Positions 9,011 to 57,399 of a stretch of 64,000 nucleotides of DNA are shown one piece after another. The first letter of the stretch is position 1, and the number at the start of each line of letters is the position of its first letter. The notes beneath the pieces were generated by a model. That model saw nothing but the letters and a program-made list of their open reading frames with translations, was not told the DNA's origin and did no database searches. A program made the translations under genes and the position numbers. This stretch comes from Marsupella aquatica. Lineage: Eukaryota; Plantae; Marchantiophyta. The stretch spans positions 11,716,771 to 11,780,770 of the forward strand of contig OZ316891.1 of NCBI GenBank assembly GCA_973895155.1. The letters are read 5' to 3'.

Positions 9011-9202
9011 ATGTATATTTCATGGGTTTTTGTGTATTTGGGTTAGGGTGAGGGAGACCATTCATGGGTTTTGAAGGAGGGAGGAAAGTGATGTTGACCC
9101 AGTCTGCCGCAATTAAAATGGCATTACTGAAAAAGTACAAAAGTTACAAAATGGAAGGGTAAAAACCCTTAGGTAAAGCGCCACGGCCATGCATGCTGAT
9201 CG

Positions 9203-16651: not shown

Positions 16652-16842
16652 ATCTTCCCCTTGACTCTGGTCTAGGGGAGAGTAATACTGCCAATGTATA
16701 TGATCCCTCAGCGGGAAGTTCTGGACAGAAACCAAACCGGTTTCCCTCTCTAACTAGAGCAAACCAGAACTAAGCCGTAGCCTAATACATAGGAATGAGG
16801 AAGAGCATATATCAGTAATTACAATGAATGTTTAAGAAAACT

Positions 16843-20070: not shown

Positions 20071-20115
20071 ATCATCTGCTCTCCTAGATGACGTGCACAG
20101 GGCATACCCCCGGCT

Positions 20116-22304: not shown

Positions 22305-22779
22305 TGTTGAGCATAGACGACGATCGCAACGGCAAGCCCATGAACCATCCAACGCACAATAGTCGACACAAGAGATACGTGGTTCACCTCCTTGAGGCTA
22401 CGTCCACGGGAACACACAAGAGAGCTTTACTGAACTCTAAGCCCGTCGGCTATACCGAGTCTCCACAGTGTAAGCTCTCCCTATCTCTCAAGTGGCTCCA
22501 TAACAATGAGCCTTGGTTCTACCTCTCCAAGCACACATGCCTCTTATGATATAGTGTGCAACTTAGTTGTACCTAACCACATAGTTGTACCTAACCACAT
22601 AGTTGTACCTAATCACGTAGTTGTACCTAACCACATAGTTGTACCTAATCACGTAGTTGTACCTAACCACATAGTTGTACCTAATCACGTAGTTGTACCT
22701 AACCACGTAGTTGTACCAACCCACGTTGTTGTACCAACCACGTCATACCTAACCTAGACGTAAGAGTAAATACCCAACA
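22305..22779 (-). repeat. Copia 5' LTR
   Basis: Adjacent to the PBS; matches 16177-16651. Confidence 0.95.
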
Positions 22780-28163: not shown

Positions 28164-29042
28164 TCACTCTGATTCAGAATCGCTAATGACCCATTCCTCA
28201 CTTGTTGTCTCATAGTCCTCTCTGTAAGGATCCTGACCCTTCCATGGCCAGGCCTCAAAAAGATCATAGTCCATTGGGTTTTGACGCTTCCCAGCTGCTA
28301 CTGATTCCACAAGCCAAGCATATGAAACCACAAACACATTATGGGACATGACATAAAAGCGAATGTCTCCCTTCCCAAACTTGCGGCAGGCTTTGGGATA
28401 TGACTTAGTAATGACATGAGTGGTGTCCTCTGTTATATTCTCCTCCACTGTCCCACCTAGGTCAAGCACTGTGGACTTGTACACTTTGCACTTAACCTCT
28501 CCAATTCCCGCCTCCACAAATACCATGCTCAGCCCTTTCAGAATGGGGGTTGGTTGCTTCGTCTCCTCAGCCAACATACACTTCAGCCTTGTAGAGCTCT
28601 GTCCTTTGTTGAGTACAGGTCCATATTGGAGATCAGCAAGCCGTGCCTTTGCTTCCCAGACTTCTTGTTCAGCCCAAGCTGATGCAATAGCTTCTTCATC
28701 CTCCCACAACTCATATTGCTCAGTATCCTGTACAATCTTATGTGCTATGGAATCTGTGATCCAAGAGGCCTCAACTACTTTTAGGCCTTGCTTAGTAATT
28801 GCAGAATTCATGTAGGACCATGACCACTTCTTTATCACTGATAGCCATGTCCCTGCAACAACATGTGTAGTCTCTGGAGTGATGTCCTGAACTACAGTGC
28901 CATGGAGCTCAGAGAATCGTTTCTGTACAGTTGGCCAATGCACTTTGGTCAACCCATGCTGGCCATGGACCAAAATCGCTCTGACCCCTGTAAACACTGC
29001 TGGGTGGTCACACTTTCTACGTTTACCAGGCTCCATGTACAC
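28164..29042 (-). CDS. Tandem BRCT-domain protein (Pol lambda-type BRCT), cargo of the inner CACTA
   Basis: Two related repeats: VFTGVRAILV...LHGTVVQDITPETTHVVA...VVEASWITDSI and ILKGLSMVFVE...LGGTVEENITEDTTHVIT...VVSYAWLVESVAAGK...DYDL. Both show the BRCT GG, THxI and WxxxS hallmarks. Confidence 0.8.
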   Translation of the reverse strand: MYMEPGKRRKCDHPAVFTGVRAILVHGQHGLTKVHWPTVQKRFSELHGTVVQDITPETTHVVAGTWLSVIKKWSWSYMNSAITKQGLKVVEASWITDSIAHKIVQDTEQYELWEDEEAIASAWAEQEVWEAKARLADLQYGPVLNKGQSSTRLKCMLAEETKQPTPILKGLSMVFVEAGIGEVKCKVYKSTVLDLGGTVEENITEDTTHVITKSYPKACRKFGKGDIRFYVMSHNVFVVSYAWLVESVAAGKRQNPMDYDLFEAWPWKGQDPYREDYETTSEEWVISDSESE

Positions 29043-29339
29043 ACACTCTACGTGATGACAGTGAATTTTGGAAGAATGGGTTCACTTGACAATACAAGGA
29101 CAACAAAATTCCTGCTTTTTGAGTTGATCTGGCCCACTGGTGCTCAGGTCCGATTTTGATAGGTACAAGGGATATGTGAACAATACGTACTAGGCACCTG
29201 CACGGATGCAGGACATTGTTTGAATATATACTACAAAATCCATATCCGTGGTGAAATGAAGTGCAACCAACTTGTCATGGCACATACATATTTTGTTGTA
29301 AAGGAGGATACATTCAATGACAAACTTCATTGCAGTAGC

Positions 29340-29483
29340 AAATGCCTTTGTACCTTAAATGCTAAATATATTTTACTTTCTGTGCAGTCTGCTAAATTGT
29401 AGAGTCTATCTAAATGCCTTTGTACCTTAAATGCTAAATATATTTTACTTTCTGTGCAGTCTGCTAAATTGTAGAGTCTATCT
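29340..29483. repeat. Exact 72-bp tandem duplication
   Basis: aaatgcctttgtacc...agagtctatct at 29340-29411 and 29412-29483. Confidence 0.95.
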
Positions 29484-29494
29484 CATGCGCAGGC

Positions 29495-30174
29495 ATGGCA
29501 CGGCCTAAAATTCAAGCCAAAAAGCGTGTGACAGAGGTGAGAAACACAGGTGTACTTGGGGCAGATGCTACTAACTTCTCTGCAAGTCAGATTTTCCAGA
29601 AGGCAGCTCATTGTTGTGCCATTTGTGACGATGGTGGGGGCCTGGTCATTTGTGAGGGCCTTTGCATGAGGCATTTCCACCTCAACCCGGAGTCTGACCT
29701 TGCTGCAGAAAACAACTGTCCAGGGGTGGGCCTCCCGTCAACACACCAGGGAGACTGGATGTGCACTGATTGTTTGGAGAAGCAGGCTAAGTGTGCACAG
29801 TGTGGGAAGTTGGGGTCCTATGAGGGCTCTGTTGATGCTGCAGCAAATGTTAGGAAATGTCCAGACCGTTTTTGTGTGAGATTTTTCTGTTTTGAGTGTT
29901 TGCCTGCTCATGCCACAGCTTGCCCACTTCATAGGTGCAAGGCATGTGGTGAGCATGATGATGACTACTGGACTGAAATAGTCCACTGTGCTAGGTGTCC
30001 CACTATGTGGCACTATCATTGCCTGAAAGATCATCAAGCAGAGGGTTATGCTTGTGACAGAGAAATCTATGATCACTCTGCACATGGTGTTGATCGATAA
30101 TATTTTATTGTCATCGCCATGCCATTGATCCTACCTCGCGCACTCCTGTGAAAGATCACATATCTTGGCTGTGA
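29495..30174 (+). CDS. EDM2-like composite PHD-finger protein, cargo of the inner CACTA; 1-bp frameshift near 30098
   Basis: CAICDDGG.LVICEG.CMRHFH...CTDC...CAQCGKLGS...CPLHRC...CARCP..WH..CL. After the frameshift it reads IFYCHRHAIDPTSRTPVKDHISW, matching the EDM2 pattern LIYC..HEID..L.TPVRDH. Confidence 0.8.
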
Positions 30175-32531
30175 AGCTGAACATTGTACATGCACAGTGC
30201 ACCTGATGTGGATGTACTATTTTTTGAGATTGCAGAGATTCCAATTTTGAAAAGGAGTTGGGTAGGCGAGTTTATATAGGCAGCACTTATCTTGTGCTCT
30301 AGCGTCAGTGGCTGGGTACATGCCTATACAAACTTATCCTTACAAGCCTTCTTGGAAGTATTTAGGCTGAGTGGTCATTTTCATAAACACTTTCATCAGA
30401 CTGCTAAATTAAAACAGGACTTCTAAGTTGTAAGCGTATAAATTATCAGGCATGCAATTAATCAAATTGCCCTATGAATGGCCACACAAGGATGCAGAGC
30501 ACACATACTTTTGGTATGTTGAGCCCACACACAAAACTGATCCCCTAATACAATTTCTCCACCAACACCTCAATTTTAATTGTGGCTATGATTCACCAAA
30601 GGAGATCTGCAACAACATTTCATGCATTTGAATCACATACAATAGTCGTGACATGTAAAACAGGCATTCTTCGAAGAGGATTGGTATGAAGCAGTGTCAT
30701 AAGGGTTGAAATTTATACATCCTAAATAGGTTATGATAGTGGCTGAGACAAATAAGTGAGGCATAAATCATTTTGCATATTATCACATGGCCCATTAATT
30801 CATTCAACGTTGCAATGTTCACCAGGTTAAAGCAGTCATGAAAGCAGTCTTTCAATAGAGACTTTTATGCGAGTTTGCTAGCTTCTTAAATTAGGATATT
30901 TTGCTTAGTGCAGGCATAATAGGATATAAGTTATGTACTGTTGACCCTAAACCCTGGACCCAAAATTGCTCATACATCAAAATTTTAAGTAAATATCCTC
31001 TGTGTTGAAGTCAGAGTGTTAAGCTATAGGTCAATGGTATCTGGTCTGTGCATGCGGTGTGACAAGTGGTCCTCTAGAGCATGTGATCCAAACATGTGTA
31101 GACACCAAAGTCACCGATGGTGGGGTCTGGGAGGGCAGGACAAGTGACATCACCAGGCACACTGCAGGATGGCGAGTGGTTCCAGATGATACATTGTGCT
31201 CTGTGCAAAAATCAGCATCCAAGAGAACGGTCATCCAATTCTGGGCCAGAAGCCCTACAGGCAGGACAGTCATATTGGCAACTGTGTACACACCCTTGGC
31301 ACCTAATTTGTGGCGGGTCATGTACAAGAGACACAAATACCAAGGATGTCGGGAAGGGAACTGAAGCAGGTAGAGGCCGGCTGTAGTTGTTCCTGGAAAC
31401 AACAGGGTACTCAAAGTACCATGCAGACTGGGCTGGAAGGATCCCAAGTCTGATATACTCAAGGCGCAACATCTCTGCCTTGCGTGCAAGTCGCACATGT
31501 TCAGCGTTGCGGGTCCTCACCATAAGTGTTGCTTTCGTTGTGATGTCCTCTGTTCACGTCCTTTGATGAGCAAGGTGAGCAGGAGGTCGACTTGCCTCGC
31601 CAACAGCAACCACCTAAACTAATCAGTTCCCACTCATTGTCTTGGTTCCAACTACAGGTCATAGTATACACATAGCATGAAACGTGCATAGTACATATTT
31701 GATTCTGAGTTTATGAGTTTCCTAAGACAAAGAGCTTGGTGATAAACCCATATTCTCGACGGACATGTATATCAATCATATTAAACTCCTGTTTTTTCAT
31801 CCAGAAAGACCGAAAGTCTCACCTTGCAGGTTGCAGCAGAGAGAAAATTCACTGGTTGTCATGTTGTGCAAGTGAACCTCCACTGATGCCCCGGTGTAGC
31901 CCCTCAGATGCAGGTGACACTTACCAACTCCCAAGTTGCCTGGTCTAACAGAAAATGCTTATATCTTCAGAACTTTATAGAGCAAGTACATGATCACATA
32001 CTTCTGGATCTATTCATATTTGGAACTCTTGCCAACTACAACTCCCATTATGCACAAGCTCACATCAACAGAGAAAGATACAGAATGCATACTTACTATG
32101 GCTCTAAGCACCTTCACTACCTTGTTGAACCTAGTCCTGAAGTCTTTTCAGCGTGTTTGTTGTGCTGTCTCCTTTGGCACCCAACACCTTAGTCCTTGAT
32201 GTAACAGAATGCGATTTTACAAGTTAGATGCTTTGGAACCTTCTATGGTCTTAGCTGAATTGATGTCATCGTAAGTGGTGAAAGACAAGGAAGACGAAAG
32301 CTGGTTGAAGAGCTGTGGACAACACACTAGCATGAAGTGCTTCAACCAATCCACTGCCAAACGGAACTCTTACACAGTCACATTCTTTTAGTAAACAAAA
32401 ACTCAGTCAAACTTCAGAATCAAAGTACAGACTCTGAAGGACCAAAGGAGGATGTTGTGAGTTTCTCTGTTGTTTAATGTGTTACCCTTCTAGTTTCGAA
32501 GTTAGCAAATGCTGAATAATGTGTCTACCAG

Positions 32532-32874
32532 ATCTTCGAAAAGAAGCCCACCACAATTAAGAACTTCGGTATCTGGGTCCACGTATCAGAGTCGTACAGG
32601 TTATCACAACATGTACAAGGAATATTGTGATACCACAAGAAACGGAGCTGCAGAGTAGATGTATGATGAGATGGCTTCTTGTCATAGAGTTCGGTTCCCT
32701 TGCATCCAGATCATGAAGACTACGACAGTCCCTGTCTCTCTGTGCAAGCGAGAAAGTACCAAGCAGTTCCATGATTCAAAGATCAAGTTCCCCTTGACAT
32801 ACTGCAAGATTCAACCTCCATTGCGAAAGCTAAAGAAGACTTACAAGGCCACCAAGCCCAACACAATTGTTTGA
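32532..32874 (+). pseudogene. RPL18A: Captured last exon of 60S ribosomal protein L18a (eL20)
   Basis: [29 protein letters not shown]...[15 protein letters not shown]...[19 protein letters not shown], with a frameshift and an internal stop. Preceded by an intron-like acceptor (ctaccag). Confidence 0.92.
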
Positions 32875-35800: not shown

Positions 35801-38627
35801 GCTGAACAAGTGAGCGACACAAGAGTGTAGGACCTCCGCCAAGCCCAGGGCAGCAGCTCAATGAAACTCAATTTGCAACTCGTCTCACTCTCGCTCTTGC
35901 TGCAAAGAAAAAAAAGCGCAGGTCAAACTCCTTTGTGGCCTCAGTCCCCACCGCTTTCCCCAAGCTATGGACAACTACTAGCAGCTTGCGCTCACAGCAT
36001 GACATCCAGGTCTTTAGCCAACTGCACACTGGAAACCGAGAGAAGTGAGCGCAATCACGCAAGGCCAAAAAAGACCAAAGTTGAGCCAAAGCAAAACTTT
36101 ACTAATGTATTTACAGTCAAGCATGAGGGCAATCAGGTAAGCAGAAGACCACGCATTCCCGCAAAGAGTTGTAGGTTCTCGTCACTTCCTCGCCTCTGTA
36201 TAGAAGGTCGATCGTTGTGTCTCGGGTACCCAATGATAGTGGAGATGAATGCAAATAGGCCTCACCAATCGCCAGTCATCCGCGATAAACCTCCCGACAA
36301 CCTTGCTCCTATACACCTTAGCACCCGCGTTGTCACCACAGGAAAGACGAATGTAAGATTTAGGGCCCACCTAAACCCTATAGTGAGATTGCAGTCGACA
36401 ATGGGTCATATAGCAAAGGTCGAAGCTCCAAGCCCTACGCAATGACATGAAATCCCACCTCCAAAAGCGCTAAATGTATTGACTGAGTGCGATCAGGTGC
36501 AAGAGTCGAGAGCAACTGAGGAAAAGTGCATTATCGGGCGCAAAGTGTTTGGCCTTGGATTCCCTTGCAGAAACGTGAAGGAAAACCCTGGTGGTAGCCG
36601 TCGACACTTTGTGCAATTTTCCTTTACAAAATCTGTTTACCCTAAACATTGAGTTGACTGGAAGGACTCGTTCATAGGCATTCTGCAAGCACCTAACACA
36701 TTTAGACGTAAGTTCACAGTTAGGATTAAACGGTAACTAAGACCAAGGGTGCATTTTTTTTTGGGGGGGGGGGCTTTTAGTTGGGTATTTTGGGTATAGT
36801 CATTGGGTTAGATAAATATCCTAAGTCACCCAGATGGCAAAAAACAACACCTACCCTTAAACTCACCCTCCTCAAGCATAAACCCTCTGAAAACCCATTG
36901 GACATTTGGAGTCATTGGCAAAAGAGGGTTAAATGGATGAAGAATGGACCGGGGGGGATGGATGCCGACAATCCAATGGTCCCTAAACCCCCATCCCCTT
37001 AACATGCAACCCCCGACCCTTGACATCAAACCCCCCCCTAAACCCCCTTTAGTGAAAACCCAGCCACCCCCTAGCCTTGACATATAAATTGCCCCGGTTT
37101 CTACTAGTGTGTGAAAACTTTCCCGCTCATGAAACAACAAGACTCTCACTTTGCGGGCGCACTCTCTCTTTCTCCAAGTCCCTCCACAAAAGCTTTTGGC
37201 AGTCAAAAGTTTAGGGCAAAAGCTATTGCCAGTTGTATCAACTTGCAATTGCGCAACATGGTTCATTGGAAGAGGGCTTCCGATAGAGAAATTGATGCAA
37301 CGGCATTGCATTGTGCACTTAAGGAAAAAGAGGTCCTAAATTGGGCCCTTCAATATTCCCATATGAAGGGGGTTCCATTTGATATTGGCTAATTATGGGG
37401 TATATATGCAGAGCAAATTTTTAAAATGAGTTAGTGGATGAAGTGAGTTTTAATATGTGTGTGAGCAGTATGTGACAAGTACCACTAATTGGTTGTGGTG
37501 ACTTTTTTAAGGTAACTATGTATGTAGAGTATTAGGGTTTAGGGTGCATCATTATTTTTGGGGGCATGGCACAAATTTTCACACCTTTTTGAACTCAGTT
37601 GCGGCCGTGTACATGAATGTTAACTTAAATTTGGTTGGTTCTTGTCTAGCTAGAATCACAAATTTGCCCTACTTACCTAAACTTCAATTAGGGTAAAAAT
37701 GTCATGTATACTTTCTTACAGGGGAACAATAAAGAGCAACTCAGTGATGGTTAAAGCAAAGGGAGGTAACTATATATAATTGCATGACATAATGTGATTA
37801 ATATGATGGATCCAAAATCATATGTATTGGGCAAGGAAATCATGTAAGTCATGGTCACTTATATAACTTCAATATACTTGCCTTAACTCAGTTACAGAAG
37901 CAACTTTCCCAATAGTTAAATACATGACTTCCCAAAACTTCACCAAAAGTGAGTCAAGAAGATGTAACAAAGATGACACCCTAAACCTTGGAGTCACTTA
38001 TTTTCAAAGGTCTCACACAAGTCATGTAAGGCTGGGTCTCATAATGGCTCGGTTTCTTCTAGTGCATGTAATCATGATACAACGCAGGGCCAGCACTACT
38101 ACCTCAACTTTTGTCTAATGCATATGCATTGTGGGAACCCGAGCATCTAAAAGGTATAACATCATGTATATAGTCAATGTTATTAGTACAGATTTTTATG
38201 CTTGCCCTTCTTTGTTGTGCCATGATATATGTGGGTAAATGTCTAAGATTCCACAACTTGACGGTTGCTAATTACCATCCAAACTTACATTTTGTTTCCA
38301 GTATTTTCCTCCTACTTCTAGATTTGGCAAATGTTCCAAAAGCCACGTGACCTATAGGCACTGTTGAGCCCGGGTCTCATTCAGGTAATAATCTAACCTC
38401 ACTTAGGACATAGGGTATTACAATTTTCCCAAAGGTTATAATGTGGTTTCTTCTTGCATGACACTCACCTTAATTTGGGTTTCATGCTAACAAATATAAA
38501 AGGGTAATAAAACCCCATGTATAAACCAACCTAATTGTTTTTTGAGTTCATTTTTTTGAAAATCGCTTTATATAAGGCCTAATTTTTCCTAATCATGCCC
38601 TACATGCAATGTAATGTGGCACTGGAT

Positions 38628-39794
38628 ATGTCCTCTTCCTCTGAACTATCCAGTAGTGAGTACTCCTCCGATGACGATATACCCCCTCCTCCTCAGCCCG
38701 AGGTTACCGGTCCTCGTGGTCCACCCCGAAGGCTTTGTGACTGCACCAGATGTGTGGGCCAAATTTCTCAAAAATCTTATGTGTGTGCTCAACATATCGA
38801 GAGATATGGACGTCATAGAGGTCTTACTCCCGGGGCTTCTTCATCCCATATGGTAAGTTTGTTTCAATTGATTGTCGTTCTTTACTGTTATTTTTAGAGG
38901 TGAATCAATGTTTACACATATGGTTTACACATTTGGTTGTTTGTGGGTGTTTGCATGGAATAGGGATCCAGTATGCGTAGATTGGTGACACCACCATCCT
39001 ATGTCCCATCACAAGGAGTTTTAGATGCTATAGGCAATGCACTTTCACAAGCCTTGGGTTTGGGAATTAGTACCAGTCATGGGACAGAAGGGGAACACCC
39101 TCATGTGCCCACTGAGACACAAAGACCCTGGTCCAGGCCCCAATCCAATAGGAGGCCACGAGCACCCAATGACCCATCCAGAACACTAGTTCAGGGTAGG
39201 TGGGGTGTTTGTTCATTCACTGGCAAGTGTGCCTCTATCATCAAGGATTGGGAACCTATCACTCTTGGCTTGCCTTATTTTACAGATTTTGATGAGGAGA
39301 TTGTGGTTTGGAGTAGACGTTGGATTGTGAAAACTTCCACACTTGGAGAGAGACATGGATATGGAGTATTTGCTTGTGAGGATATCATCATGGATGAGGA
39401 GGGTGGGTCAAGTGTTCGTGGTAGAGAGGGTCCTACTTTGTTCCCATATGGTGGACCCATCTACAAGAGAAGACATTGGAACATGATCCTTGCACAACAT
39501 CCTGAGTGGAAAACATATGCTCTAGAGATGGATACTTTTGATGGTAGCACTAGAAGGTATAGTGAGCAGCGGGTGATAGACGGTGATCCCATACGTAATG
39601 GGAATATTGCTGGTTTCATAAATAGTACTGTGGGGACTCGGCCCAAGCGTAGGGCCAATTGTGAGTGGGTTTTTACTGATGGTCCAATGCCGGCACCATA
39701 TGGCACGACATATCATAAGGACCATTGCTTAGTTCTTGCTACTAGGACCATTAGAGCAGGAGATGAGTTATTCACACACTATGAGTGGGATTAG
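38628..39794 (+). CDS. SET-domain protein isoform: exon 1 (38628-38852, Zn motif) spliced to a SET exon (38964-39794)
   Basis: SET motifs VKTSTLGERHGYGVFA, YGGPI, IDG..RNGNIAGFINS...ANC and LVLATRTIRAGDELFTHY. Phase-0 donor gtaagt at 38853 and phase-0 acceptor tag ending at 38963. Confidence 0.8.
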
Positions 39795-42700
39795 GAAATC
39801 ATGTCCTTTATCCTCTTGCACCTGTTTTGGACTTCCCATTTACTATTATATATATATGGCCTTTGGGCTCATTTTGGAGTAATAAGGTTTTAGCCCATGC
39901 ATTTACTTTAATTCTTAATGTCTTGAATGAATGGTGTTAAGTCTATTTTAATTTGTTGTACTTGGTCAAATATACATGAGGAGGTTTTTTGGTTGTAATG
40001 TGCATAGAATGCGCAACCATCTCAAAAAATGTTACCACGAAGGTTGAGAGCAACATATCGGGAGATGGGTATGCCAAAAGAGGGAGAACCATCAGAGGGT
40101 GATTCCTCATCAAGTAATGATGTAGGTGGTGCTGATGAGGAAGCCGCACCTCGGACTGATGACCAGGTCATGCATGATCAAGATAGAGCCATGGATGACT
40201 TCATGGTTGATTGGTTTGGTGCCGATGTTGAGGATGATGTGCCTCACATTGGTCATGAGGTTGGCCCTTCAAATGACCCACGGCCACAACATACTCCAGA
40301 GGGACAACAACAATGGAAAGAGGCAGAGGAACATGCTCGAACACCTATTTTTGAGGGTGCTCGGTTGAGCTGTCTTTTTGCCATATTGGGGCTCTTGAAC
40401 ATTCAAGCCAAACACAAGGCAAGCAATTCTATGTTATCAGACATATTTGAATATTGTCATGACTTGATGTTACCCTCGGAGAATGTGTTGCCAGGGACTT
40501 GGAAGGATGCAAAGAAGGTTCTCTCATCCATTGGTATGGATTACCATATTATTCATGCCTGTGTGAATGATTGCATGTTATTTCACGGGGATACAGCCCA
40601 TATCACAGAATGCATAGTGTGTCATGAGCCACGGTATGAGCCAAACATGCTAACCCAGAAGGTACCAAGGAAAGCAGTTCGTTGGTTCCCCATAATTCCT
40701 CGCTTGTTGCACATGTATAGATGTTCTAACTTGGCCGAGTTGATGGTATGGCACAAGAAACATCGTTCGGAGCCCGGTGTCATGCAATTACCAGTTGACT
40801 CTCCTGCTCATAAACATGTGGAATCAACATGGCCAGATTTTGAGCGTGACCCTCGGCATGTGCGACTGGGGTTGGTATCAGATGGAGTTAGCCCTCATTC
40901 ACTTGGAGGGAAGGGGAGACCTACATCGGTCTGGCCTGTGGTTCTCATGAATTACAACCTTCCACCATGGTTGTCCATGAAAAAGGGTTTTTTGTTGCTA
41001 TCTTTGATTATCCCAGGGCCAAAGAAGGTGAAGAACATGGACACCTATTTGACATTACTGGTTCAGGAACTCCAGAAATTATGGGAAGGAGTATGGGCAT
41101 ATGATGGTCGAAAGACTACATGGGGTACCCCACGGGTTTTCAAACTCAAAGGGGTTTGTATGTGGACCATGCATGACTACCCAGGTAAGAACTTTGTTGT
41201 TTAAATGCATCATATTCTAATGCATGGTATCCCCTCATTTCCATGTGCTAATCCTAACATAATGTGTGTTTATATGACCAGGATTTGGCTTTGTGAGTGG
41301 GTTGCAAACCCAAGACTACAAGGCTTGCTCCACTTGTGGCCCAAGCCTTGGTGATGTAGCCAAGTATTCATCACATCTTCGCAAGATTGTTTATCTTGGG
41401 CATACAAAGTTTCTTCCAATGGGACATCAGATGAGGCGTGACCCACTACTATTTTCCTCTATTGATATGCCCTTTGGTGACGAGCGTGATGTACCTGAGC
41501 CAACAACTTTTACACGCTGGAAAGACATGGCTGCAAGAGTGGCAGACCCAGAGGATCCCATACAATTTGAGGGTAGTGGCTTGACAAGGTGGAGTATATT
41601 AACCACTTTGCCCTATTGGGGTGAGTTGAAGATCCGCCATCTATTAGACCCCATGCACATTGAGGGAAATGTGGGAAAGGCTTTGATAAAGGCTTTCTAT
41701 GGAGAGAAAGACACTAACTTCAGGGAGGCTTGTGAGGATCTTGAGATGCATCCAGACGTGTGGGTCATAAGTGATCCTATCACAGGGATCGAGCATCGAC
41801 CTTCAGCTCCATGGGTGCTTCCTGTTGACCAGAGAAGGGAGTTTCGGAATCGCATAGAAGACATGCGGTTTCCTACTGGTTATGGTGCCAATCTCCGAAA
41901 GGCCTTTGGGATGGAGGACAATCATAAGTGGCCAAGGTATCTCAAGACACATGACTACCATAGGTTATTGCAGCACATATTGCCTGAGGCCATAATAGGT
42001 TTGGCAAGTGAAGAAGTGCAAGATGCCCTTTGGTCATTGGGAAAACTATTGAGATGGGTATGCTCTAAGGAGATATATACTGACGAGATCCCTGGGATGG
42101 AGGTTTTGGCAGCAGAGGTGGTATGCAAGTTGGAGAAGGCCCTTCCTCCTTCCTTTTTTGACTGTCAAGTGCATTTACTTGTTCATCTTGTTCATGAGGT
42201 GGCCATTGTAGGTCCTGTGCATTGTCGGTGGATGTATTGGCTAGAACGATACATGGCAATGTTAAAAGGTTATGTACGTAACCGTGCACGGGTTGAGGGA
42301 AGCATGGCTACAGGATACTTAGCAGCTGAGAGTATGTTCTATTGTAGTAACATATTGGCCACAATTGATTGTACCTCTCCCCGTACTTGGGTAGAGGAGA
42401 GGGAAGATGAAGAGGATCGTTTAACAGGTGCTAGGAAAACTCGCATGTTGACACCAGTGGAGGTGAAACAACTGACCACATTCATGTTGAGTAATAACAC
42501 TATCATGGAAGAATGGAGGGATTTCTACGAGGATGCCAAAAGTAACAGCACAAGACCAAGGATTTTTCCAAAGTACCTTGACTATATGAAGGAGAAGTTA
42601 GTTGAGGTGGATGACATGGTGGTCAGGGGAGAGAGTGTATTACATTTTCTGGCTATCACAGATGATGTTCGTACCATTGTTCATGGTCCCTTGAGAGTGG

Positions 42701-43401
42701 TTACAACAAGGACAACAATGTGGACACAAGAAAGACATTTCAGGTGATCTCCATCTACCTTAGTAACCTTTGATTTGAATCACTTGGTTTAATTTAATTC
42801 ATTTGTAATACAAGCACGTATATTGAAGAGGCAGATTCTTGGTGTGTTCAATTAATTGGAATATGTTTGTGTCTATTTTTGTGTAACATATCCTTATGGT
42901 TTGATGGATTTTAGGATTTCTTCCCTTGATGAGAAGAGGGGTCGTACCTTTGATTGTGGAGTTCAAGGACAATTCTCTCAAGATTCCCGCAGCAGTCGCC
43001 ATGACACAAATATTATTCGAGATGTTGTGCCACATTATGGAAAGGTAGAAGAGATTCTATTGATATCTTATGATGCACAATCAAAGTTTGAAGAGTATGT
43101 CTTCAAGTGCAAGTGGTTCAAAGTGAACCTTGCAGGTAACAATCCTACTGTGGTTCAAGATGAGTGTGGATTTACACGACTGAAGACGTCTGCCACTAGT
43201 TTCCAGCCATCTCATTGGCAAACATCAGAGCCGTTCACTTTTCCAAGTCATGTGGAACAATGTTTCTATATTCCATACCCCCCAAACCCAGAGGAATGGT
43301 CACTTGTCATCACATATGTGCCACGGTCTCGTTCAATCGTTGGGGAAAAGCCTGATATTCTGGTTGTGTCCCAACCTGAAGATGATGAGGACCAAATTTG
43401 A
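38628..43401 (+). CDS. TnpD-like CACTA transposase of the outer element
   Basis: Exons 38628-38852, 40008-41184, 41282-42743 and 42915-43401; all intron phases are compatible. Motifs IHACVNDC, RHVRLGLVSDGVSP, NLPPW, HDYPG, DPMHIEGN, KTHDYH, PPSFFD...HLLVHL, WMYWLER, EPFTFPSHVEQCFY. Confidence 0.92.
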
Positions 43402-43794
43402 GGGGTCTGTGTTTGTGGATATATAGCTACACGGATATATAGTTAGATTTGATGATATGAAGATTTCTCTTCTCGATAGAATGGAGAAATATGTGCTTCT
43501 CAATTATCAATAAACTTATGTTTTGTAAGTATATCATTTTCAAATGTTGTTTTCTATATCTCCCATCCCTACCCCACACTCACCACACCTTTTGGTAGAC
43601 TTTATGCAAAGAAAACTCATGTTGCTTGTAGTCCTCTATCCTCCATGCTTTCCTAATCCCCCCCTAGCCGTTCTCCTTATTACTTGTACCCACCTCCCTC
43701 CTCCTTTCTTTCATTGTCTGTCCCTCTTATTAAACCCTCCTTTACCCTCCCTCCCCAATCCCATTCCTTTTCCACCTCTTTGAAGCGCTCATAA

Positions 43795-44330
43795 TATTTT
43801 GCGAAACATCTTGCAAAACCCCGACACCCGCAAACTCATCGCTACATTTGCGATACTTAACTGCTCGCTAATTGCCATCATGAACTCATCGCAAACTTCC
43901 GAAGATACCACGATCTCAAAGTTGTGAAACCAAAACATTCACAAAATGAGACCCTAGACAGGCACAGGATTTGTGAGCCTATTACTATCGCAAGTTAGCC
44001 ATTCCGTAAACATCGCTCATTTGCGAGACAATAAGACTCGCAAAATATTTTGAGATGCTAAAATATTTGCAACTATTTAGTTTCTCGGCGCATCCCAATG
44101 AATTTGCGAAGCGGTAAAGATCGCTAAATTGTTCAATGATAATTACTTCGGAAATTTTTTGCGATACGTGAAGTGTGGTAAAATGTTGCGATTGTGTAAG
44201 TTTTGCAATTATGTGTTGCGATGTGGATAGATTCGCTAAGTGCGATGCGTATCGTATCGCAAGTTTAGCGATGAGATTAATCTTGCAAAGCTTTCTTCCT
44301 CTTGTAAAATGCCTTCGCAAAATTGGCAAA
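43795..44330. repeat. Right subterminal TCGCAA/TTGCGA array of the outer CACTA
   Basis: Same motif density as 8490-9010. Confidence 0.8.
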
Positions 44331-45261
44331 TATGTAGTAGTGCATGTTATTGGAGCAACACATTATTTAAGTTTCAATGCAATTTATTTTTGAGTCATGA
44401 TTCCAATTATGCACCTTGTGTAGAGTCCCCAACCAGCCCCCTCCCACCAGGATACCTCCACCTAAGCCTTCAACTCCTGGGGCCCCCTTTCCAGCCTCCT
44501 TGCTCCAATGCCACCCTCAGACAAAATTCCACCACCACCAGAAACCCCCTCAACTTTGACTTCTAGTTGTGGCATCTTTATGCAAAAAACAAGACTTATT
44601 AAACTTAAGAATTTTTTTAAAATCAATCACTTTCTATGTGCCTACCTGTTTTTGAGTAATATATATAATCATAAGTTGCCTCTGTCTAAGTAACTACCAG
44701 GTTTGGGGAAACAATGAATTTATCACAAAAAATAACCGACATTGCTATATGGTGAACCCTACTTATGTTTTTTTTCCTTTCATTTTGGCAAAAATCAAAC
44801 TCTTAATGTGCTCTTGCAGTAAGGCATTTCTTAAAATTATTGCCTTATTGACTATTTTGATACCCCTTTGCCGAAAAAACAAATCTTTACTTTTCATTTA
44901 ATTTTTTACCCCTCTAAGAAAAATTAAAGGTTGTGTTTTACCCATATCCATAAATCCCAAAAAATGTTGGTAATTTTTTTCCAACTTTTCACACAAACAA
45001 GCTCCATGTAATGTAGGGTATGGCTTTGAGAAGTTTATGGATTAGCTCCATGCAATGTCCTCTACATTTAGTTCTAACCAAATTTCTAAGGGATGGCTTA
45101 CAAATTTATAGGGTTTAAATCAGCATCTCAAGAACTTTGTCAGGGAATTGAACCCTGAACTGTCCAACAGACAGTCTTCCAAGCAAAGTACCCCCCCACC
45201 CTTTAACCCCACACCCCCTCTCTTTAACTCAAATAGAAAGCAATGTAATCAAAATTTTCCA

Positions 45262-46787
45262 TTATTCATTTGTAGGTTCTGTTTTCACTCTAAAAATTGA
45301 TTTGTACAAAGCAACTCTTCTGCTGATCTTCGTGGGTGGCACTTCCTCGCAATCATCATCAGAGGACAAATAGATTACCTTAGCATTTGCACATTTTCCA
45401 GAGTTTAAAAGATCAGTGGTCTCAAGATAATTAGAATCTGGCATGGGCACAGTGTCTTTCAAGGACACATATTTAGGCAAATTATTCCAAGAACATGTTT
45501 CCAAAGCTTCCTTCCTCGTCTCTGCAAAAATATCATCAAATCTTACAACTTTTTCTTTACCCTCTTTCTTCATTGGAACTCTGTGTAATGCACTTTTCAT
45601 AGGAGACACATTTATTACATTACTTCTTGGAGAATCCTCTTCACCAGAATCATCATCCCAATATCTACCATGCAGGGATCTTTGTTTCTTGACGAAAATA
45701 TTCTCCACATCTTCTTTCTTAATATTGCAAGGATCTACTATACATTTCCAGAGTGAAGTCATCCTAGAAAATTGTATACCTTGTTCATTTAGAGGAATAA
45801 TCCAACTTGCAGCAGGCATAAAAATTCCAAACTTGATCATGTCAGTAAGGGTGGATAAAAAAGTAGCACCAAGAGGTCTGTCACATTCAAACATACATTC
45901 TTTCACCCACGTTTTGTTAGTTAAAGTTACCCTGGTTTTCAAATCAGCTTTCCCATAGATAGAATGTAATGTTTTACCTGCTGTCACTTCTGCATCAGTG
46001 ACATTGAACATTACAGACTCAAAATGCTATGCACCTGTATCTTTCAAACAGTAACCAGTCATGCCTTTGTAGGTTTGAATAAATCTATTAGTTAACAACT
46101 TACAATTCACCTTACCCACAGGATTCATGTTTTTCAAACAATGCCAACCCATATATTTCTTGACAAGCACACCAAAAGATCTAGCAGATTTAGTTCTTGA
46201 TCTGACGACCATTTGCATATGCAAGTGATTTTCAATATCACCTCTCTCAATGGCAACAAGACCTGATACACAATGGTCTCTCATCAGAGTATTCATGAGG
46301 TCAATCTCAGTTGGATTTATATCTGCACCTAAGTGTCCAATGGTAATACTTAATTCTTTCACATTATCAACCATACTAATATTTTTCTCCTCTGCTATCA
46401 CAAGTCTTGCCTTTCTTTTCAAAGAAGCCATGACAAATGAGGACACTGTTCTCTGCACTGTAAATTTTCATCACCTTCTTTACAGATACAAGGTAGAATA
46501 TCAAACACAAACACATGATAAATATCGTCACTTTTAACAAGAAAAAATACTTTCTCTTTACATTCTACTACAATCTCATCCTCCCCAGTTTCTGGAGTTG
46601 AATCTAAGATTCGAAATGGACCACCAAGTATTTTTTATTGACCTTGTTTACATACAAACCAACAATACTTCACGTCTCTTACACAACTAGAAGTTTCCTT
46701 TGGGATATTTTCCAAGATAGATTCTCCTATGTCAGATGTTGCATAAGGTGTGAGAAGCTCCTCTAGAAGCTGACTTTCCAAGGACAT
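45262..46787 (-). pseudogene. Replitron-like HUH endonuclease/transposase with premature stops
   Basis: LSITIG (motif I), IERGDIENHLHMQ (HUH motif II), GMTGYCLKD (catalytic YxxK). ORFs 46027-46458 and 45262-46011 are in frame across one TAG. Probable upstream exon at about 46551-46787. Confidence 0.75.
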
Positions 46788-51298: not shown

Positions 51299-54200
51299 TT
51301 AGAAGTGAGATGGCTTGAGTGAGCCGGTGGTGTTCCTGCCCAGGGCAGAAGCCGTAGCAACAGCAGTCAAGTGATCTAAGGTTTCAGAAAAGATCAGTAT
51401 CTGATCAAAAGTTCTCAGCTTAGAACGGTCAAACGTTTGAGAATTTCTCGCCAGCCAAATGCACCACAGTGATTGATGTAAGAGGAAGAGACGCAAAGTA
51501 GTCAAAGGCTCCTTCCCCAAGGTGGATGAGAGCAAGCCAACAATAGACACGTGTCCAATGTTGAGTAGTCCATTCATCCAGCTCCTGGCCAAACTCCAGC
51601 AACAGGTCGCGTGTCTGCAAAAAAGGAAAATGTGGGGAATAGTTTCCACAGTGCCGACACACAGAGTACAGGAGCCATCAGATTTGTCCATCCTGAGAGC
51701 CCTAGAGCCAGAGAAGAGCCCCTGATCCAAAATCCGCCAAAGAAAAGTTTTTGCCTTAGTGGAGAGATCAGCACTCCACACCACTACCCAGACCCTGCCC
51801 CATTCAGCCTCAGTCAGGGTTTCATTCCAGATCCGGTTAAGCTTGCCAAAGTCAGAGCCCTTAGGGTGGAGCATTTCATACACCCGGTGATTAGAGAGCC
51901 TAAAGCAGTGGGGAGCAACATCTTTGTCAAGCCACCGCCATTGCCTGGCTATAGAGTCAAAAGCATGTCCCCTGAAGGCTGATCCGTGAATAGCCTGGAA
52001 AAAGGCCAGCGTCCCCTATTTTGCCTCCCGAGAGAGTCCCCTGAAGCGTGACAGCAAAGCATCCACAGATTTCCACTCATTGTCCGCATCAGACCACAGG
52101 TCAGAAACAGATCGAAAACCCAGACGGCCACAAATCTTAACAATCTCCAAAAGGTGCGACTCAGGAAGGTCATAGAAGCCTATCATACTCCGTAGCAGAT
52201 CCTCCATACCCCAGTGGCCAGGGATAGCAAATCCCCCAGGTGAGAAAATAAGATTGGCTCACACTAGATCCCAAGCAGCCCATAGTTGACCAGTGTAGAT
52301 GAATCTCCCAAAAGAGCGTGGGGTGCTGAGTAGCATCTTGTCCGACATCGAGTACCTATTCCTGCGTACTGTCTTATAGTTCCTCCATTTGATTAGGGTG
52401 AGATTCTCTGCATACAATAAAGCCCATTCAGAAGTTGGATGATTGAGGGCTCCGGTGAACCACTTACTCAACAGTGCATCAGAGTGGCTTCGAAAATCCT
52501 TCAGATCGAGGCCACCATCTCCCTTGGGCCGAGTAAGCTTCTCCCATGCCACCAGTGGAACACGCTTGCCCCCCAGCTCATTAGTGCCCCATAAAAAGGT
52601 TCTGCTCAGAGCAATCAATTTCTTGGTCAATGCATGAGGTGACCGCAGGAACATCATGTGGTACACCGGAATGGCCTGCAACACATGCCTCACTAGTAAC
52701 AATCTGCCAGTAAAAGATAAAAAGCGTGTTGACCAAGAGGAAAGCCTGGATCCAATACGATCAAGACAGAAGGAATGCAACTGGCTCTCCGATAATCTAC
52801 TCCCAAAAGGGGCACCCAGATACTTCTGGACGGTACCAGGGTCACTGATGACGCACCCGAAGTCCTTCAGTCAATCAGGAATCACATCCAAAGAGAGTGG
52901 AATAACAATAGATTTTCTCAGGTTTAGCTTGGCTCCCGTTGCAGTCTCATAGCAATGAATTGCGTCACAAGCTTGATTAAAGGCCACCTCCATAGCAGGG
53001 ATAAAAAGACCTAAGTCATCAGCAAAAAGACGGAAACAGATATTCAGAGACCGAGAAACCTGGATACCTTGTAGCCTACCAGCATGGATTTCAGCACTGA
53101 AAAAGTCCATCAACGGCTGTGTGGAGAGAGCAAAAAGTAAGGGTGACAGGGGGCAGCCCTGTCTCACACCCCGAAGCATCCGAACATTGGATGTCCAGAG
53201 TCCATTAACAAGTACCTTGGAGCTTGCATTACTGAGGAGCGATTTAACTACAAAGATAAAATGAGGGCCAAGCCCTAGCAGGTGCATTGTTTCCCAGATA
53301 TACGAGTGGTCTACCCAATCAAAAGCTTTTTCGAAATCCAATTTGAGGAAGAGAGCAGGGGTTTCTGTGTAGCTGAGCCAGTCATTCATTAACCAGGTTA
53401 GAGAGATGTTTTCTAAGATGTGACGACCAGGGATAAAGCCGGTTTGCTGAGGATTGATCAGCTTAGGGAGAAGCACCTTCAATCTCAGAGCCAACAACTT
53501 AGCCAGAATTTTGTATGTGGTTGTCAGCATAGTTAAAGGTCGCCAGTCACTTAGTTTCCTTTTATCAGTTTTCTTGGGGATGAATCGAATCACCCCATCT
53601 TTGATGCATTGTGCAAGCTCTCCCGTCCTCCAAAACTCACAGACCATGCAGTGAAAGTCTACTTTCATAAACTCCCAACAGGCCTTGAACACCTCCGCAG
53701 TCATCCCGTCCACCCCTGGAGCTTTGTCAGCAGGCAGCAACAACAATGAATTGTGTAATTCTTGTAAGGATGGAAGCTCTGCAAGTCTCCGGATTTCACC
53801 AACAGAAGGGGCAAAGTGCGTGTGACTGCTCAACATCCTGCGGGCAACTGATCTCTCTCTCAGGAGCACCGGGCTCATCTCGGGTGGCGAATATAGTTCC
53901 TCACAGTATTGATGCACTTCCTCCACAATAAGTGTTTCATCCTGGATCACCCTGCCTCCTTCAACTAATAGAATTTCCATTTTTTCCCTCAGACGTTTAG
54001 CCTTTACTAAGGAGAAATAGAATTTAGATGGTTCGTCTCCCTGGCCAAGCCATTTAATCCGGGAGAGCCTGCGGTTGTGACGTGCTTCTTCAAGATCCAT
54101 CGTGCGAACACTGTCCGCCGTGGAGGAGAAGTCTCTGATGCTATCCAGTGAGTAGTCATCCATGATAGTGATTTTTAAAAGACGTAGCTTCTCTTTAAGT

Positions 54201-55162
54201 CGAGACAGTTCAGCGTCCCTGGGTAACTTCAGGGACTGGAGCTCCATGTAGCAACTACGAAGCCTTTGAAATGCCCGGTCAAATTTCAAGTGGGGGGGAG
54301 CCGGATCTTCAGCACCAGCATCCCAAGCCAATTTAAGTCGTTCCAGATTCCTGTTGTCTCAGAGCACGGCCGGATTGGCCTTAAAGTAAGTGCCTCTGCG
54401 CATCAATGATTCCACCAGGGTAATTGGTCCCAGACGGAAAGAAACAATCACAGGATCATGATCGGACAAGGCAGAAGTTCTGTCATGAGTGAGATCAACA
54501 AGCTCGTCAGTCCATCTTCCTTTCTCGCTGAAGTAGAACCTATCAAGGCGGGATTGAATAAGTACACCATTGCGCACCCTGCGCCAAGTAAACCTGGAAC
54601 CTGCCACCTCGTCCAGAATGGTAAGCGCGTCTTGCAAATCGAGGCAAGTTTTTAGAAACCTCCAAAACTCCAACTCTCGACCAGAAATCAGAGGGGACAG
54701 ACCGGTAGAATCGCAGCAAAGTTCAGTCATATTAAAATCCCCACAGAGAATCCAGCGGTCACTAGGGAGTTCATTTCGAAGGTTGTTCCACAGCAAGATC
54801 CGCTCACCCGTAGTATTCGGTGCATATATTGATATCAGGCCAAAATTTCCCCCTGCATGCGCCAACCGGGCCCATACAGCACGTCCCTTATCTAACAAAC
54901 CGGTAGAAAGAACAGTAAAAGAGGGGTGGAGGAGAATGGCCGATCCTCCCCTACCCCCATCTGGGGCAGAATAGAAGTGGTGGTAAGTAGGTAAAATAGT
55001 TCTGAGTGCAATGTCCAGACGAAAGCTGTCAGCTTTAACCTCTTGCAGGGCCAGGGCATCCAGAGGAGTGCGTAGGGAAGAAATCCATTTGGCCACCACC
55101 AATTTTCGGTCAGGATCACATAGGCCGCACACATTCCATGAGGCAAAACAAAAAATCTTCAT
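51299..55162 (-). pseudogene. LINE ORF2 (APE endonuclease, RT, zf-RVT) broken by in-frame stops
   Basis: SWNVCGL, LQEVK, GDFN, SRLDRF, SDHDPV; KAPGVDG, QTGFIPGR, KLDFEKAFD, GVRQGCPLSP, FADD, YLGAP; CTLC...ETIPHIFLFC. Confidence 0.92.
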
Positions 55163-55433
55163 CAGCCTCCCTCCCCACCAGGGATGACATGCAAGGGGGA
55201 GAGGTCACCAGGTGTTGTTAGAGGCCTCCAGACCCAGCTCCCCGGGGAGCCATGCTTCCTGAAGGTAAAATCCCACTAGGGGGTGAAGATGAGAAAGCAG
55301 TAGACCGCACAGGAGCCACAGCTCCGGGAGGAGAAACAACAGATTTCTGCTTCATCTCCCGAGAGAGCCGACGTCCTAGCGTCACCCAACCCTCAGCATC
55401 CTGCACATGAGAATCAGAGGAGAACTATAAGGA

Positions 55434-57399
55434 TCATTGATTTTTGGCTTTCTTCTTGCCACTCTCCTTCTTCTTTTCGTTAGGTGGTGAGCGCCTAGCC
55501 AGCTTCCTAGCCCGCTCCTTCTTAATAGCGGTGCAAGATATGAAACCTTCGTATTCGGATAACTCCATGTCAGAAGGGATATCCGATGCCGAGAGCTCCT
55601 CATCGCCTTCATCCATTTCTTCAGAAGCCCCCTGGATATGCTCAAGACGTGTCTCAGTTGGTAACACAAGGGCCAGAGCCAAAGGGTCCGCTTCAGACTC
55701 CTCAGGAGCCTCCAAAAGTGCGAGGGGAGCAACAGTGTTCAACTCTTGTAATTCATGGAGAACTCTGGGCATTTCTTCTTGATCCGATAACAACTGGGTA
55801 GCTGTGACTTCTAAACTGAGAGTTACAACAGACTCATCAATAGCCCGAGCAATCACCACGGGGGGGGCCAGGGCTATCATCTAAAGGAACAGTCCCGAAC
55901 AACACGATTTCGTTATCAAGCGGTTCACCAGGATTGAGAAGTGGTAAGGCCAACTCGCCAATGGGTGGAAGCTCCGTGTGTGCAGCTTCAGAGCGTCGAC
56001 AGTCACTAGAGGTCGGCGGGGGTACCCTCGTGACCAGGTTAGGAGTGTCAGACGCAGGAGGAGGGGGTGGGATTAGCACATCCTCCTCAATAGAGGCCGC
56101 AGGTGCCTCATGAAGTTGGCAGTCCCGTGCAAGATGTCCCTTCATTTGACATCGATAGCAGTGGAAGGGGATGTTCTTAAAAATCACAGGCTGCCAAATG
56201 GAAAGGCCCACCTTAATCTGCACCTCAACACTCCATGGCACCTCTCGTTGAGTATCCCATAGTATACAAGCCCGGTCATGCGGGTAGGAGCTCAACATAT
56301 CACCCTGGATGTAGTGTAAAATATCCCCAAGGGAAGAAGCCAACCTCCTGCGGCAAGGCTCCAACACAAGAGCACGAAAAGGAACTTCGATCCACACTGG
56401 CAGCATCGTGTAAGATTCATTTAGCACATCAAACGAAGGGTCCCACGGAAAAGAGAAAACAAATTTTTGATCCAGAAACCATGGGGCACCAGCTAGCGCC
56501 AGATCCCGGTGTTCTGGATGCTGGAATACCACCATATAGAAATTTTTCCCCACAAATTTCACTTGGGTAACAGGCCACTGCTGCTCCTTCACAAAGGTAT
56601 TAGTCACCCAAAATTTGAAGGTGGGTAACATAGGAGTCCTATCAGTAAAATAACACATCATTGTACAATTAAAGAGCTCCTTCACTGTATCCGCAGCTTC
56701 TTCTAGTGACCAGGAGATAGTGGTATGCAGTTTAGAAGGCCAGTCTTGCACGGAAAGATCGACAATCCTTCTCAAAATGGGAACACATGCTTCAGCTTCC
56801 TCAGCTCGTACATGAGCAGGGGTCTGTGAAGATGCAAAAGGTCCCCTCGTAGAGGGTCTGGCAGGAGTGCCAGGGACATTCAAACGTGGAGTAGCATCGA
56901 TCGATTGATCAATAAGCATATCTTCTTCATCCCTTTCGCCGATGTCCTCGCGAAAGTATTCCCCGTAGTCCGCCTTTCCCCGTCCCTCCAGAGAGTCCAT
57001 TATCGTGTTCTCATCCGGAATAGGGGCAGGGCAATGTGAAAATCCATCCGCATTGGTGCCAGAGGTACGTAATCCAAACCAGCTCTGTTTAGCTTCCGCA
57101 GAAGTGGAAGCAGAATTCACCTAATTGCTCTTCGATCTCCCCTCAGGAATTCCATCAGATCTAACATCCTGATGAGAGAAAGTAGCATCAGTCCGTTCTG
57201 AGTGCCTCGTATCAGTTGCTAGATGTTGTGCCCCCTTCTCAGCAGCACGAGAGCCCAAATTCGACCAGTGCCCAGCACCACCTTCCGCATCCCTCCTGAG
57301 GGATTGGTTCCTCATGAGGTCACCACGGCCGCCACCAGTAATTTCCCCGGTACCCCGCCATAGAGCCTTGCCCTGCAGAGTTAAGCCACATTGAGTCAA
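55434..57399 (-). pseudogene. LINE ORF1 (DUF4283 plus CCHC zinc knuckle)
   Basis: GAPWFLD...WDPSF...PVWIEVP, CYRCQMKGHLARDC. In-frame TAG at 57121 and a frameshift near 55860. Confidence 0.8.

Follow-up and report, generated by a model that had tools for sequence, protein, structure and literature searches.

Why should an intact exon for a SET domain lie inside the transposase gene of a DNA transposon, and what would be made from it? These questions are raised by a 64,000-nt stretch of the genome of the liverwort Marsupella aquatica (assembly GCA_973895155.1, contig OZ316891.1, forward-strand positions 11,716,771 to 11,780,770), which is called the window here and whose own numbering is used throughout. 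The SET-bearing CACTA element occupies positions 8474-44342 and measures 10,473 bp without an insertion that is nested in it. On balance, we favour reading this as a full-length CACTA transposon with a conserved SET exon, whose transcript is likely spliced in alternative ways, one giving the transposase and the other a putative lysine methyltransferase.

Layout of the SET-bearing transposase gene

On the forward strand, exon 1 (38628-38852; 225 nt, 75 codons, phase 0) encodes a Ser/acidic start and a CxCxxC-x13-H zinc (Zn)-type motif, and ends at the phase-0 donor ATG/GTAAGT at 38853. An earlier note on this DNA had described this exon together with two phase-0 acceptors downstream of it, at 38963/38964 and 40007/40008, and all of these coordinates were confirmed on the sequence. 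The near acceptor (AATAG/GGA) follows an intron of 111 nt (38853-38963, 46% T) and opens a frame of 276 codons closed by a TAG at 39792-39794. This SET exon (38964-39794), given as 830 bp in the earlier note, is indeed open through to ELFTHYEWD and the stop, and is 831 nt long with the stop codon included; a linker of about 72 codons precedes the SET core. A T-rich spacer of 213 nt (39795-40007, 43% T), which has stops in the transposase frame, separates it from the far acceptor (CATAG/AAT). If joined, exon 1 and the SET exon would encode a predicted Zn-SET protein of 351 amino acids (aa).

The far acceptor opens transposase exon 2 (T2, 40008-41184), which bears Transposase_21 (Pfam E value 2e-38) and the first two catalytic Asp motifs. 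It is followed on the same strand by exon 3 (T3, 41282-42743), with DUF4218 and the WLER catalytic Glu motif, and by exon 4 (T4, 42915-43401), with DUF4216. Read in sequence, exons 1 to 4 form one open frame of 1,117 aa that contains the SDG, DYP, and WLER catalytic motifs; PF02992, PF13960, and PF13952 all score above their Pfam cut-offs, which identifies a TnpD-type DDE transposase. Exon 1 is likely to be common to both predicted products. Its CxCxxC...H motif is kept at the N terminus of distant Riccia proteins, and the exon-1 profile matched, in register but only marginally, the N terminus of the transposase of the nested SET-less CACTA element (E 0.018; control, E 0.35). A relative, P0120, matched PF13963 at E 0.031, and a hidden Markov model (HMM) of the motif did not raise the neighbouring transposase above background.

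Relatives of the element

To place the SET exon, relatives were collected from proteins and from metagenomes. The protein search gave 41 matches among 717 candidates, those with a species name belonging to Sphagnum or to the liverwort Calypogeia fissa, and one protein cluster of relatives has 360 members. The metagenome scan yielded 30 loci out of 77 pattern matches; 29 of these appear to be one young peat-moss-type family, and the remaining locus, L003, represents a third lineage beside the window. Sibling elements also carry the SET exon, which occurs in all three lineages. Behind the SET exon, T2 was found in 24 of the 30 loci; in the remaining six the contig breaks off 8-228 nt past the SET stop. 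Exon 1 precedes SET in 11 of the 30, most others starting too near SET; in L020, L021, L025, L028, and L029 the SET exon is 5'-truncated and no exon-1 match lies upstream. The 5' end type of the window element, CACTACAACA...TTTTGC, also begins L006, L008, and L024. Since the sequence shared by these dispersed copies starts at the CACTAC end while their flanks differ and are unrelated, the SET exon lies inside the mobile unit.

An intron-like gap of about 150 nt was seen in T3 of peat-moss-type copies (L001, L012, L013, L015, L021, L024, and L026), with none at window positions 41877-41878; this difference may be either an intron loss or an intron gain.

A wider profile search at E<=0.001 returned 118 representatives, and 74 clusters passed the stricter limit of E<=1e-10. 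When 45 family representatives were scanned, 30 matched SET (E<=0.05) and three carried Transposase_21; among 20 representatives that were looked up, eight were from Riccia sorocarpa and one from Calypogeia. The Riccia gene models show either Zn motif plus SET or SET plus Transposase_21, with the transposase sequence placed behind SET. Riccia-type proteins are 31-47% identical to the window in the SET core; compared over SET, a Calypogeia and a Sphagnum protein are each 79% identical to that of the window, and Riccia proteins 38-45%. One relative, P0087 (a Logan contig of 2,141 nt), holds Zn motif and SET within a single open frame of 423 aa, being either a spliced transcript or an intronless member of the family. 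Longer SET fusions were absent among 1,474 candidates, which is weak evidence. In Table S5 of PMC9946827, the orthogroup that includes one of the family's gene models has 90 genes in one Sphagnum genome and 44 in another; Physcomitrium, Ceratodon, Marchantia, and Anthoceros have no member, and Pseudotsuga has two; the BDL97_ and Sphfalx gene identifiers were paired by their shared numbering.

By sequence comparison the family is old, and synonymous divergence (dS) between the window and peat-moss-type copies is 0.6-1.5. A quick tree of 53 rows placed the window with a Calypogeia protein (SH-like approximate likelihood ratio support 96), next to the Sphagnum clade. Horizontal transfer was considered for these dS and identity values and set aside, as old paralogous families would account for them equally well.

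Fold and motifs of the SET domain

The complete SET fold proposed in the earlier note is upheld by several lines of evidence. PF00856 (SET) matched the SET exon over the full model at E 5.4e-6, its score of 27.2 bits lying above the cut-off of 22.4, and the first ESM Atlas match of the exon product was SET (0.98). An AlphaFold model of the domain from a 59-sequence alignment reached a mean predicted local distance difference test (pLDDT) score of 92.8; an earlier fold from 18 close sequences gave 35, and the deeper alignment was used for the final model. Similarly, PDB searches with a single sequence or a shallow profile gave no match, and the 59-sequence profile alone gave matches. All PDB matches among those listed by Foldseek for the model were SET methyltransferases, with LegAS4 in first place.

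As regards affinity, a viral, bacterial, or PR-type relationship had been suggested. The Legionella protein LegAS4 (PDB 5czy, 8swi) is indeed the best match both by profile (E 5e-8, with eukaryotic SETs at 4e-4 or weaker) and by Foldseek (E 2.9e-7, template modelling score 0.50), but this affinity is weak, and VIA superpositions tie all SET classes: Set1, EZH2, SETD8, SETD7, ASH1L, and LegAS4 all gave Z 11.2-12.3, with root-mean-square deviations of 2.2-3.1 over 118-135 residues. Therefore, neither origin nor substrate is readable from the fold. A viral origin is not supported, because BFVD gave only generic SET matches (14-22% identity among 18 hits at E<=0.001); a scan of viral contigs gave 79 pattern matches, none of them a relative. 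Pfam found no pre-SET, CXC, or post-SET Cys-cluster domain, so that the host classes Su(var)3-9, E(z), Trx, ASH, and ATXR5/6 are not matched.

Most of the motifs expected of a methyltransferase are retained. Motif I (GxG), motif II (YxG), and motif IV (ELxxxY, with the catalytic Tyr) are present in the family, and among the 59 aligned proteins conservation reaches 57/58 at G62, 52/59 at N148, 59/59 at N160, 55/56 at E196, and 51/54 at Y201. The residue two before the catalytic Tyr is non-aromatic in 50 of 51 proteins; under the Phe/Tyr-switch rule, a non-aromatic residue at this position would allow di- or trimethylation. With intact S-adenosylmethionine (SAM) motifs, a retained catalytic Tyr, and no aromatic residue at the switch position, the SET product would probably act as a multi-methylating enzyme. 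On these motifs, we judge catalysis to be moderately likely.

The same splicing could, nevertheless, deliver a SET product that is a self-restraint device or a pseudo-enzyme, diverting transcripts from the transposase and acting as a Zn-motif repressor, a decoy, or a methyl-lysine reader, in the manner of the 66-kDa repressor isoform of the P element. A pseudo-enzyme is suggested by the NH motif, in which G(F/Y)INS replaces RFINHxCxPN and the His gives way to Ser in 57 of 59 proteins (the FINS for NHS of the earlier note, confirmed by the alignment along with the missing post-SET Cys cluster). It is also suggested by the near lack of a C-terminal cap: the chain ends 3 residues past the catalytic Tyr (family median, 7), a place where other SET proteins carry a cap, there is no post-SET region, and the model stops at the equivalent of SET8 residue 339. 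As for self-restraint, the near acceptor necessarily competes with transposase output, and the N-terminal Zn motif would be shared. Against a pseudo-enzyme, the SAM-binding glycines, the Asn, and the catalytic Tyr are kept among proteins 22-50% identical, which fits catalysis better. Moreover, LegAS4 also lacks the His (it has YINFS) and has been described as an H3K14 methyltransferase, an apparent case of an active enzyme without this residue. We regard a restraining or inactive product as unlikely, although it is the alternative that fares best.

A probable shared first exon and its alternative acceptors

The arrangement of a shared exon 1 with alternative acceptors is strongly supported by comparison of the splice sites. 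All 11 loci with exon 1 retain its donor GT. The AG of the SET acceptor is retained in 15 of 16 loci and that of the T2 acceptor in 22 of 23, in addition to L011 and L003, which were checked by hand. In the window, in the peat-moss-type family, and in L003, a phase-0 TAG/G acceptor stands behind a T-rich intron of 111-118 nt. The spacer is only 35-43% identical between lineages (146 versus 213 nt), yet CATAG/AAT is kept at the homologous codon. The comparison of lineages revealed no conserved GT in the spacer and no phase-0 GT after the catalytic Tyr, so that T2 has no evident donor other than exon 1. Of the 30 loci, 28 retain the SET stop, and no poly(A) word is conserved in the spacer across the compared loci. 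In several NCBI gene models of Sphagnum and Calypogeia, which are predictions, the SET exon is spliced onto exon 1 at the expected point. Given this conservation, alternative splicing from exon 1 probably takes place.

The SET exon could instead be a separate gene nested in intron 1, with its own Met start and a product of about 263-273 aa, exon 1 then serving the transposase only. An in-frame ATG does lie just past the acceptor, four codons in, in the window, in the Sphagnum family, and in P0003, and many database entries begin at that Met. On the other hand, a nested gene sits badly with the phase-0 acceptor and T-rich intron kept in all three lineages, with the Calypogeia protein P0002, which has no Met from the junction to the SET core, and with the single frame of Zn motif and SET in P0087. 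A nested gene is accordingly improbable.

Proposed mechanism and substrate

In the reading that we prefer, one promoter upstream of exon 1 would feed both products. If the near acceptor is used, the 351-aa Zn-SET protein would result, the transcript ending within or beyond the T-rich spacer, which would be its predicted 3' untranslated region (UTR). If the far acceptor is used instead, the product would be the 1,117-aa DDE transposase, the spacer forming the end of its long intron. The common Zn motif would bring both products to the element ends or the transpososome, where Zn-SET would methylate histones and keep the element competent for transposition. Recruitment to the element's own ends is the simplest view, because Zn-SET would share the N-terminal Zn motif of the transposase. 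That the product acts on the chromatin of the element itself is a tentative suggestion, which we hold less firmly than the splicing or the catalysis.

The SET protein might also be active on another substrate, such as the transposase, the accessory protein of the element, or host silencing factors. This would agree with the lack of a reader or clear DNA-binding domain beyond the small Zn motif, and with a fold that ties SETD7, SETD8, EZH2, MLL, and ASH1L and so leaves a histone target unreadable. However, the close structural neighbours listed are all histone methyltransferases, and other transposons have been described as carrying chromatin-modifying cargo (PMC12730594). A substrate other than the element's own chromatin seems to us highly doubtful as the main explanation.

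Still less probable is a SETMAR-like fusion in which splicing from the end of the SET exon into T2 would join SET and transposase in one polypeptide. The gene models P0021, P0057, P0101, P0123, P0154, and P0160 do join a cut SET to T2, but they leave SET at varying points, mostly ahead of the catalytic Tyr. The conserved SET stop and the lack of a conserved donor after this Tyr also speak against a single polypeptide, and the final GT in phase 0, 20 codons short of the end, stands in a non-canonical context (GTTCTT/GTTATA).

Selection on the SET exon

The ratio of nonsynonymous to synonymous substitution rates (dN/dS) was estimated for the window against nine loci that are not mutually independent, 10 of the 30 loci being used overall. 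The SET core gave 0.21-0.29 (bootstrap upper bounds, 0.35-0.45), about 0.24 between families, which indicates purifying selection; the SET-exon linker gave 0.29-0.59, exon 1 gave 0.09-0.16 (five loci), and the transposase exons gave 0.09-0.19. Copies of the peat-moss-type family compared with one another gave 0.77-1.33, a range that dead copies following a burst would show. The low between-family value of the SET core therefore suggests that the SET exon is maintained in active lineages. A passive Pack-CACTA cargo, that is, a captured host exon without a role for the element, would suit the neutral drift within the young family but is largely refuted and scarcely tenable, given the selection between families, the same position of the exon in elements whose SET identity is no more than 31-47%, and the absence of any host parent gene from the 118 representative hits or in the orthogroup counts of Physcomitrium, Ceratodon, Marchantia, and Anthoceros.

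Evidence weighing against the proposed reading

Several observations weigh against the reading of one gene with two spliced products, one of them an active methyltransferase. With respect to expression, both junctions are here predictions from conserved splice sites. One S. angustifolium gene model spans 1,148 bp, exactly the length of its coding sequence and a 116-nt intron, which leaves no room for a UTR. A direct junction of exon 1 with T2 was found in no database protein (13 hits among 43 candidates), and an in-frame Met occurs early in both downstream exons, at codons 4 and 8. Table S6 of PMC9946827 gives a near-zero expression for one peat-moss copy, 0.069 in one condition and 0 in seven. 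With respect to activity, besides the lost His and the short C terminus, regions flanking SET have been reported to be necessary for activity (PMC3980110). Homology between exon 1 and the transposase-associated domain is weak and only suggestive, and 29 of the 30 metagenome loci, as apparent members of one young family, are therefore not independent. Lastly, the nested insertion, about 560 bp upstream of the exon-1 ATG, may have silenced or disabled the window copy, in which all frames are still open.

A wider reading would see here an old moss and liverwort CACTA clade in which a splice switch on a shared Zn exon yields either the transposase or a minimal, element-targeted histone methyltransferase that writes a protective mark. 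Such a protein would be a chromatin writer encoded by a land-plant transposon and tied to the output of transposase, and the clade might have moved between mosses and liverworts. We offer this wider reading as a possibility that is more doubtful than any single step of splicing, catalysis, or action on the element's chromatin.

Ends of the element and the nested insertion

The earlier note had overlooked the 5' half of the element with its third gene (8474-12671) and the CACTA element inserted between the halves. CACTAC termini lie at 8474 and 44342; the terminal inverted repeat (TIR) is short and imperfect, with 9 of the first 10 bases matching. The 5' end (8474-9010, + strand) combines the CACTAC terminus, the left flank CGT, and TTGCGA/TCGCAA subterminal repeats, and the 3' end (43780-44342) combines subterminal repeats, a terminus that is CACTACTACATATT on the - strand, and the right flank CAT. 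Words of the TTGCGA/TCGCAA type are clustered, 16 of them at 8500-9000 and 17 at 43500-44400, and the 3' end of L019 resembles that of the window element. As the flanks CGT and CAT are one CpG-type transition apart, a 3-bp target duplication is likely, though not clean; no related locus has both ends. The sequence CACTACTAC at 38094 was considered as a 5' end and rejected, having no subterminal repeats and sitting within a repeat unit.

Upstream of exon 1 a tandem repeat region (12066-12671) is interrupted, its second unit resuming at 38068-38471 past an unrelated nested CACTA element of 25.4 kb (12672-38064, - strand), which has an 11-bp TIR, CACTAGAAGAA, a CAT target duplication, and its own TnpD and Ptta-like open reading frame (ORF). 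Scripted removal of 12672-38064 restores the repeat unit, with 437 of 529 columns matching unit 1 and the junction in an ungapped block. Two non-coding blocks upstream of exon 1 (38100-38160 and 38291-38373) are 75-86% identical to L003, L004, or L024 and recur in the repeat unit at 12191-12605; they are candidate promoter or binding sites.

The third gene of the element is a divergent accessory ORF, whose main exon (10231-11349, - strand) has 372 codons from stop to stop, with a further conserved piece near 9696-9806. Five loci matched it, with 66-73% identity over the best segments. It had no Pfam match, no Atlas match at 0.9 or above, and no match to the nested Ptta ORF. Its position, together with an HRLG motif that we presume to be of the TnpA kind, suggests that it is perhaps TnpA-like.

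Other elements in the window

The nested CACTA element carries a TnpD at 24-27.7 kb, a Ptta-like ORF at 15.0-15.7 kb, a twin-BRCT ORF (28164-29081, - strand; PF00533, E 3e-13), and an NSD-like multi-PHD ORF (29468-30100, + strand; E 5e-5, below the cut-off). A CACTA element with a candidate histone reader, and with chromatin- and repair-type cargo between its ends, thus sits in a CACTA element with a candidate writer. Within the nested element lies a Copia long terminal repeat (LTR) retrotransposon (16177-22779), at the third level of nesting. Its two 475-bp LTRs show 100% identity and it is flanked by the 5-bp target duplication CGACC, so that it must have inserted very recently. A stop-broken, intronless copy of ribosomal protein L18a (32506-32874), also inside the nested element, is either a processed pseudogene or a captured fragment. 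Just past the SET element are a Replitron HUH endonuclease gene (45262-46467, - strand; PF21859, E 7.5e-12) with tandem repeats at 46.8-47.5 kb and, farther on, a long interspersed nuclear element (51299-57120, - strand) with ORF1 (DUF4283 and zinc knuckle), endonuclease, and reverse transcriptase, its frames interrupted by a few stops. No Rfam match was found anywhere in the window.

Comparison with known systems

Splice choice and SET domains are each known from transposon-derived systems. In the Drosophila P element, splicing from one promoter decides between transposase and a 66-kDa repressor with a common N-terminal Zn-binding module; the P repressor is a truncation through intron retention, whereas here an alternative exon is predicted to add a foreign enzyme domain. 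SETMAR/Metnase is a domesticated single-copy host gene that holds SET, with pre- and post-SET, and a mariner transposase in one polypeptide. The present locus likewise combines SET and transposase, but it belongs to a mobile, multicopy family, and a transcript is predicted to give one product or the other. VANC and other known anti-silencing proteins of plants are sequence-specific regulators. LegAS4/RomA of Legionella is 26-30% identical to the SET domain described here and has ankyrin repeats, and we make no claim of origin from it.

Maize En/Spm, itself a CACTA element, has been described as producing TnpA and TnpD through alternative splicing (PMC13547354). The window element resembles it in its CACTA termini, subterminal repeats, and Transposase_21/DUF4218/DUF4216 domains, would resemble it in the predicted two proteins per transcription unit, and may do so in a 3-bp target duplication, which is not clean here. 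Unlike in En/Spm, the second product would be a SET protein rather than TnpA, and the accessory ORF is a separate divergent gene. A SET domain on a DNA transposon of the EnSpm/CACTA superfamily has also been described in red algae, where Plavaka carries it in the accessory gene PAG2 (bioRxiv 10.1101/2025.02.11.637652). Compared by that description, PAG2 is a separate gene in which SET is fused to an adenine methylase; the lineage and the host differ, and no shared transposase exon is described. SET genes are also reported on HarbingerS and MuDR elements of Phytophthora (PMC12730594) and on Helitrons (PMC12730594; bioRxiv 10.1101/2025.02.11.637652), which belong to other superfamilies and hosts and are compared here through the citing papers rather than by gene structure. 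More broadly, SET or TET enzyme cargo is reported in oomycetes, red algae, and fungi, and no functional test of a transposon SET was found in these cited accounts (PMC12730594; bioRxiv 10.1101/2025.02.11.637652). SET cargo on transposons is thus already known, judging by these accounts in the form of separate genes, although HarbingerS, MuDR, and Helitrons may have a similar splicing layout. The literature searched, with subscription journals and Repbase Reports lying outside it, held no description of a SET exon within a CACTA transposase gene, of the bryophyte family, or of a shared-exon layout in land plants.

The window adds to this family a separate member in which the transposase frame is intact and the two ends are present. 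The orthogroup of 90 and 44 members that is tabled as expanded in Sphagnum (PMC9946827) is probably this transposon exon, an annotation trap in which a transposon exon is counted as an expanded gene family. The element offers a compact candidate chromatin writer in a multicopy land-plant family, and moss and liverwort model species permit it to be tested. It thereby makes two questions testable, whether transposons write their own histone marks and whether splice choice can balance transposition against self-marking. If active, the family would add a class of SET domains that function with neither the His nor a post-SET cap.

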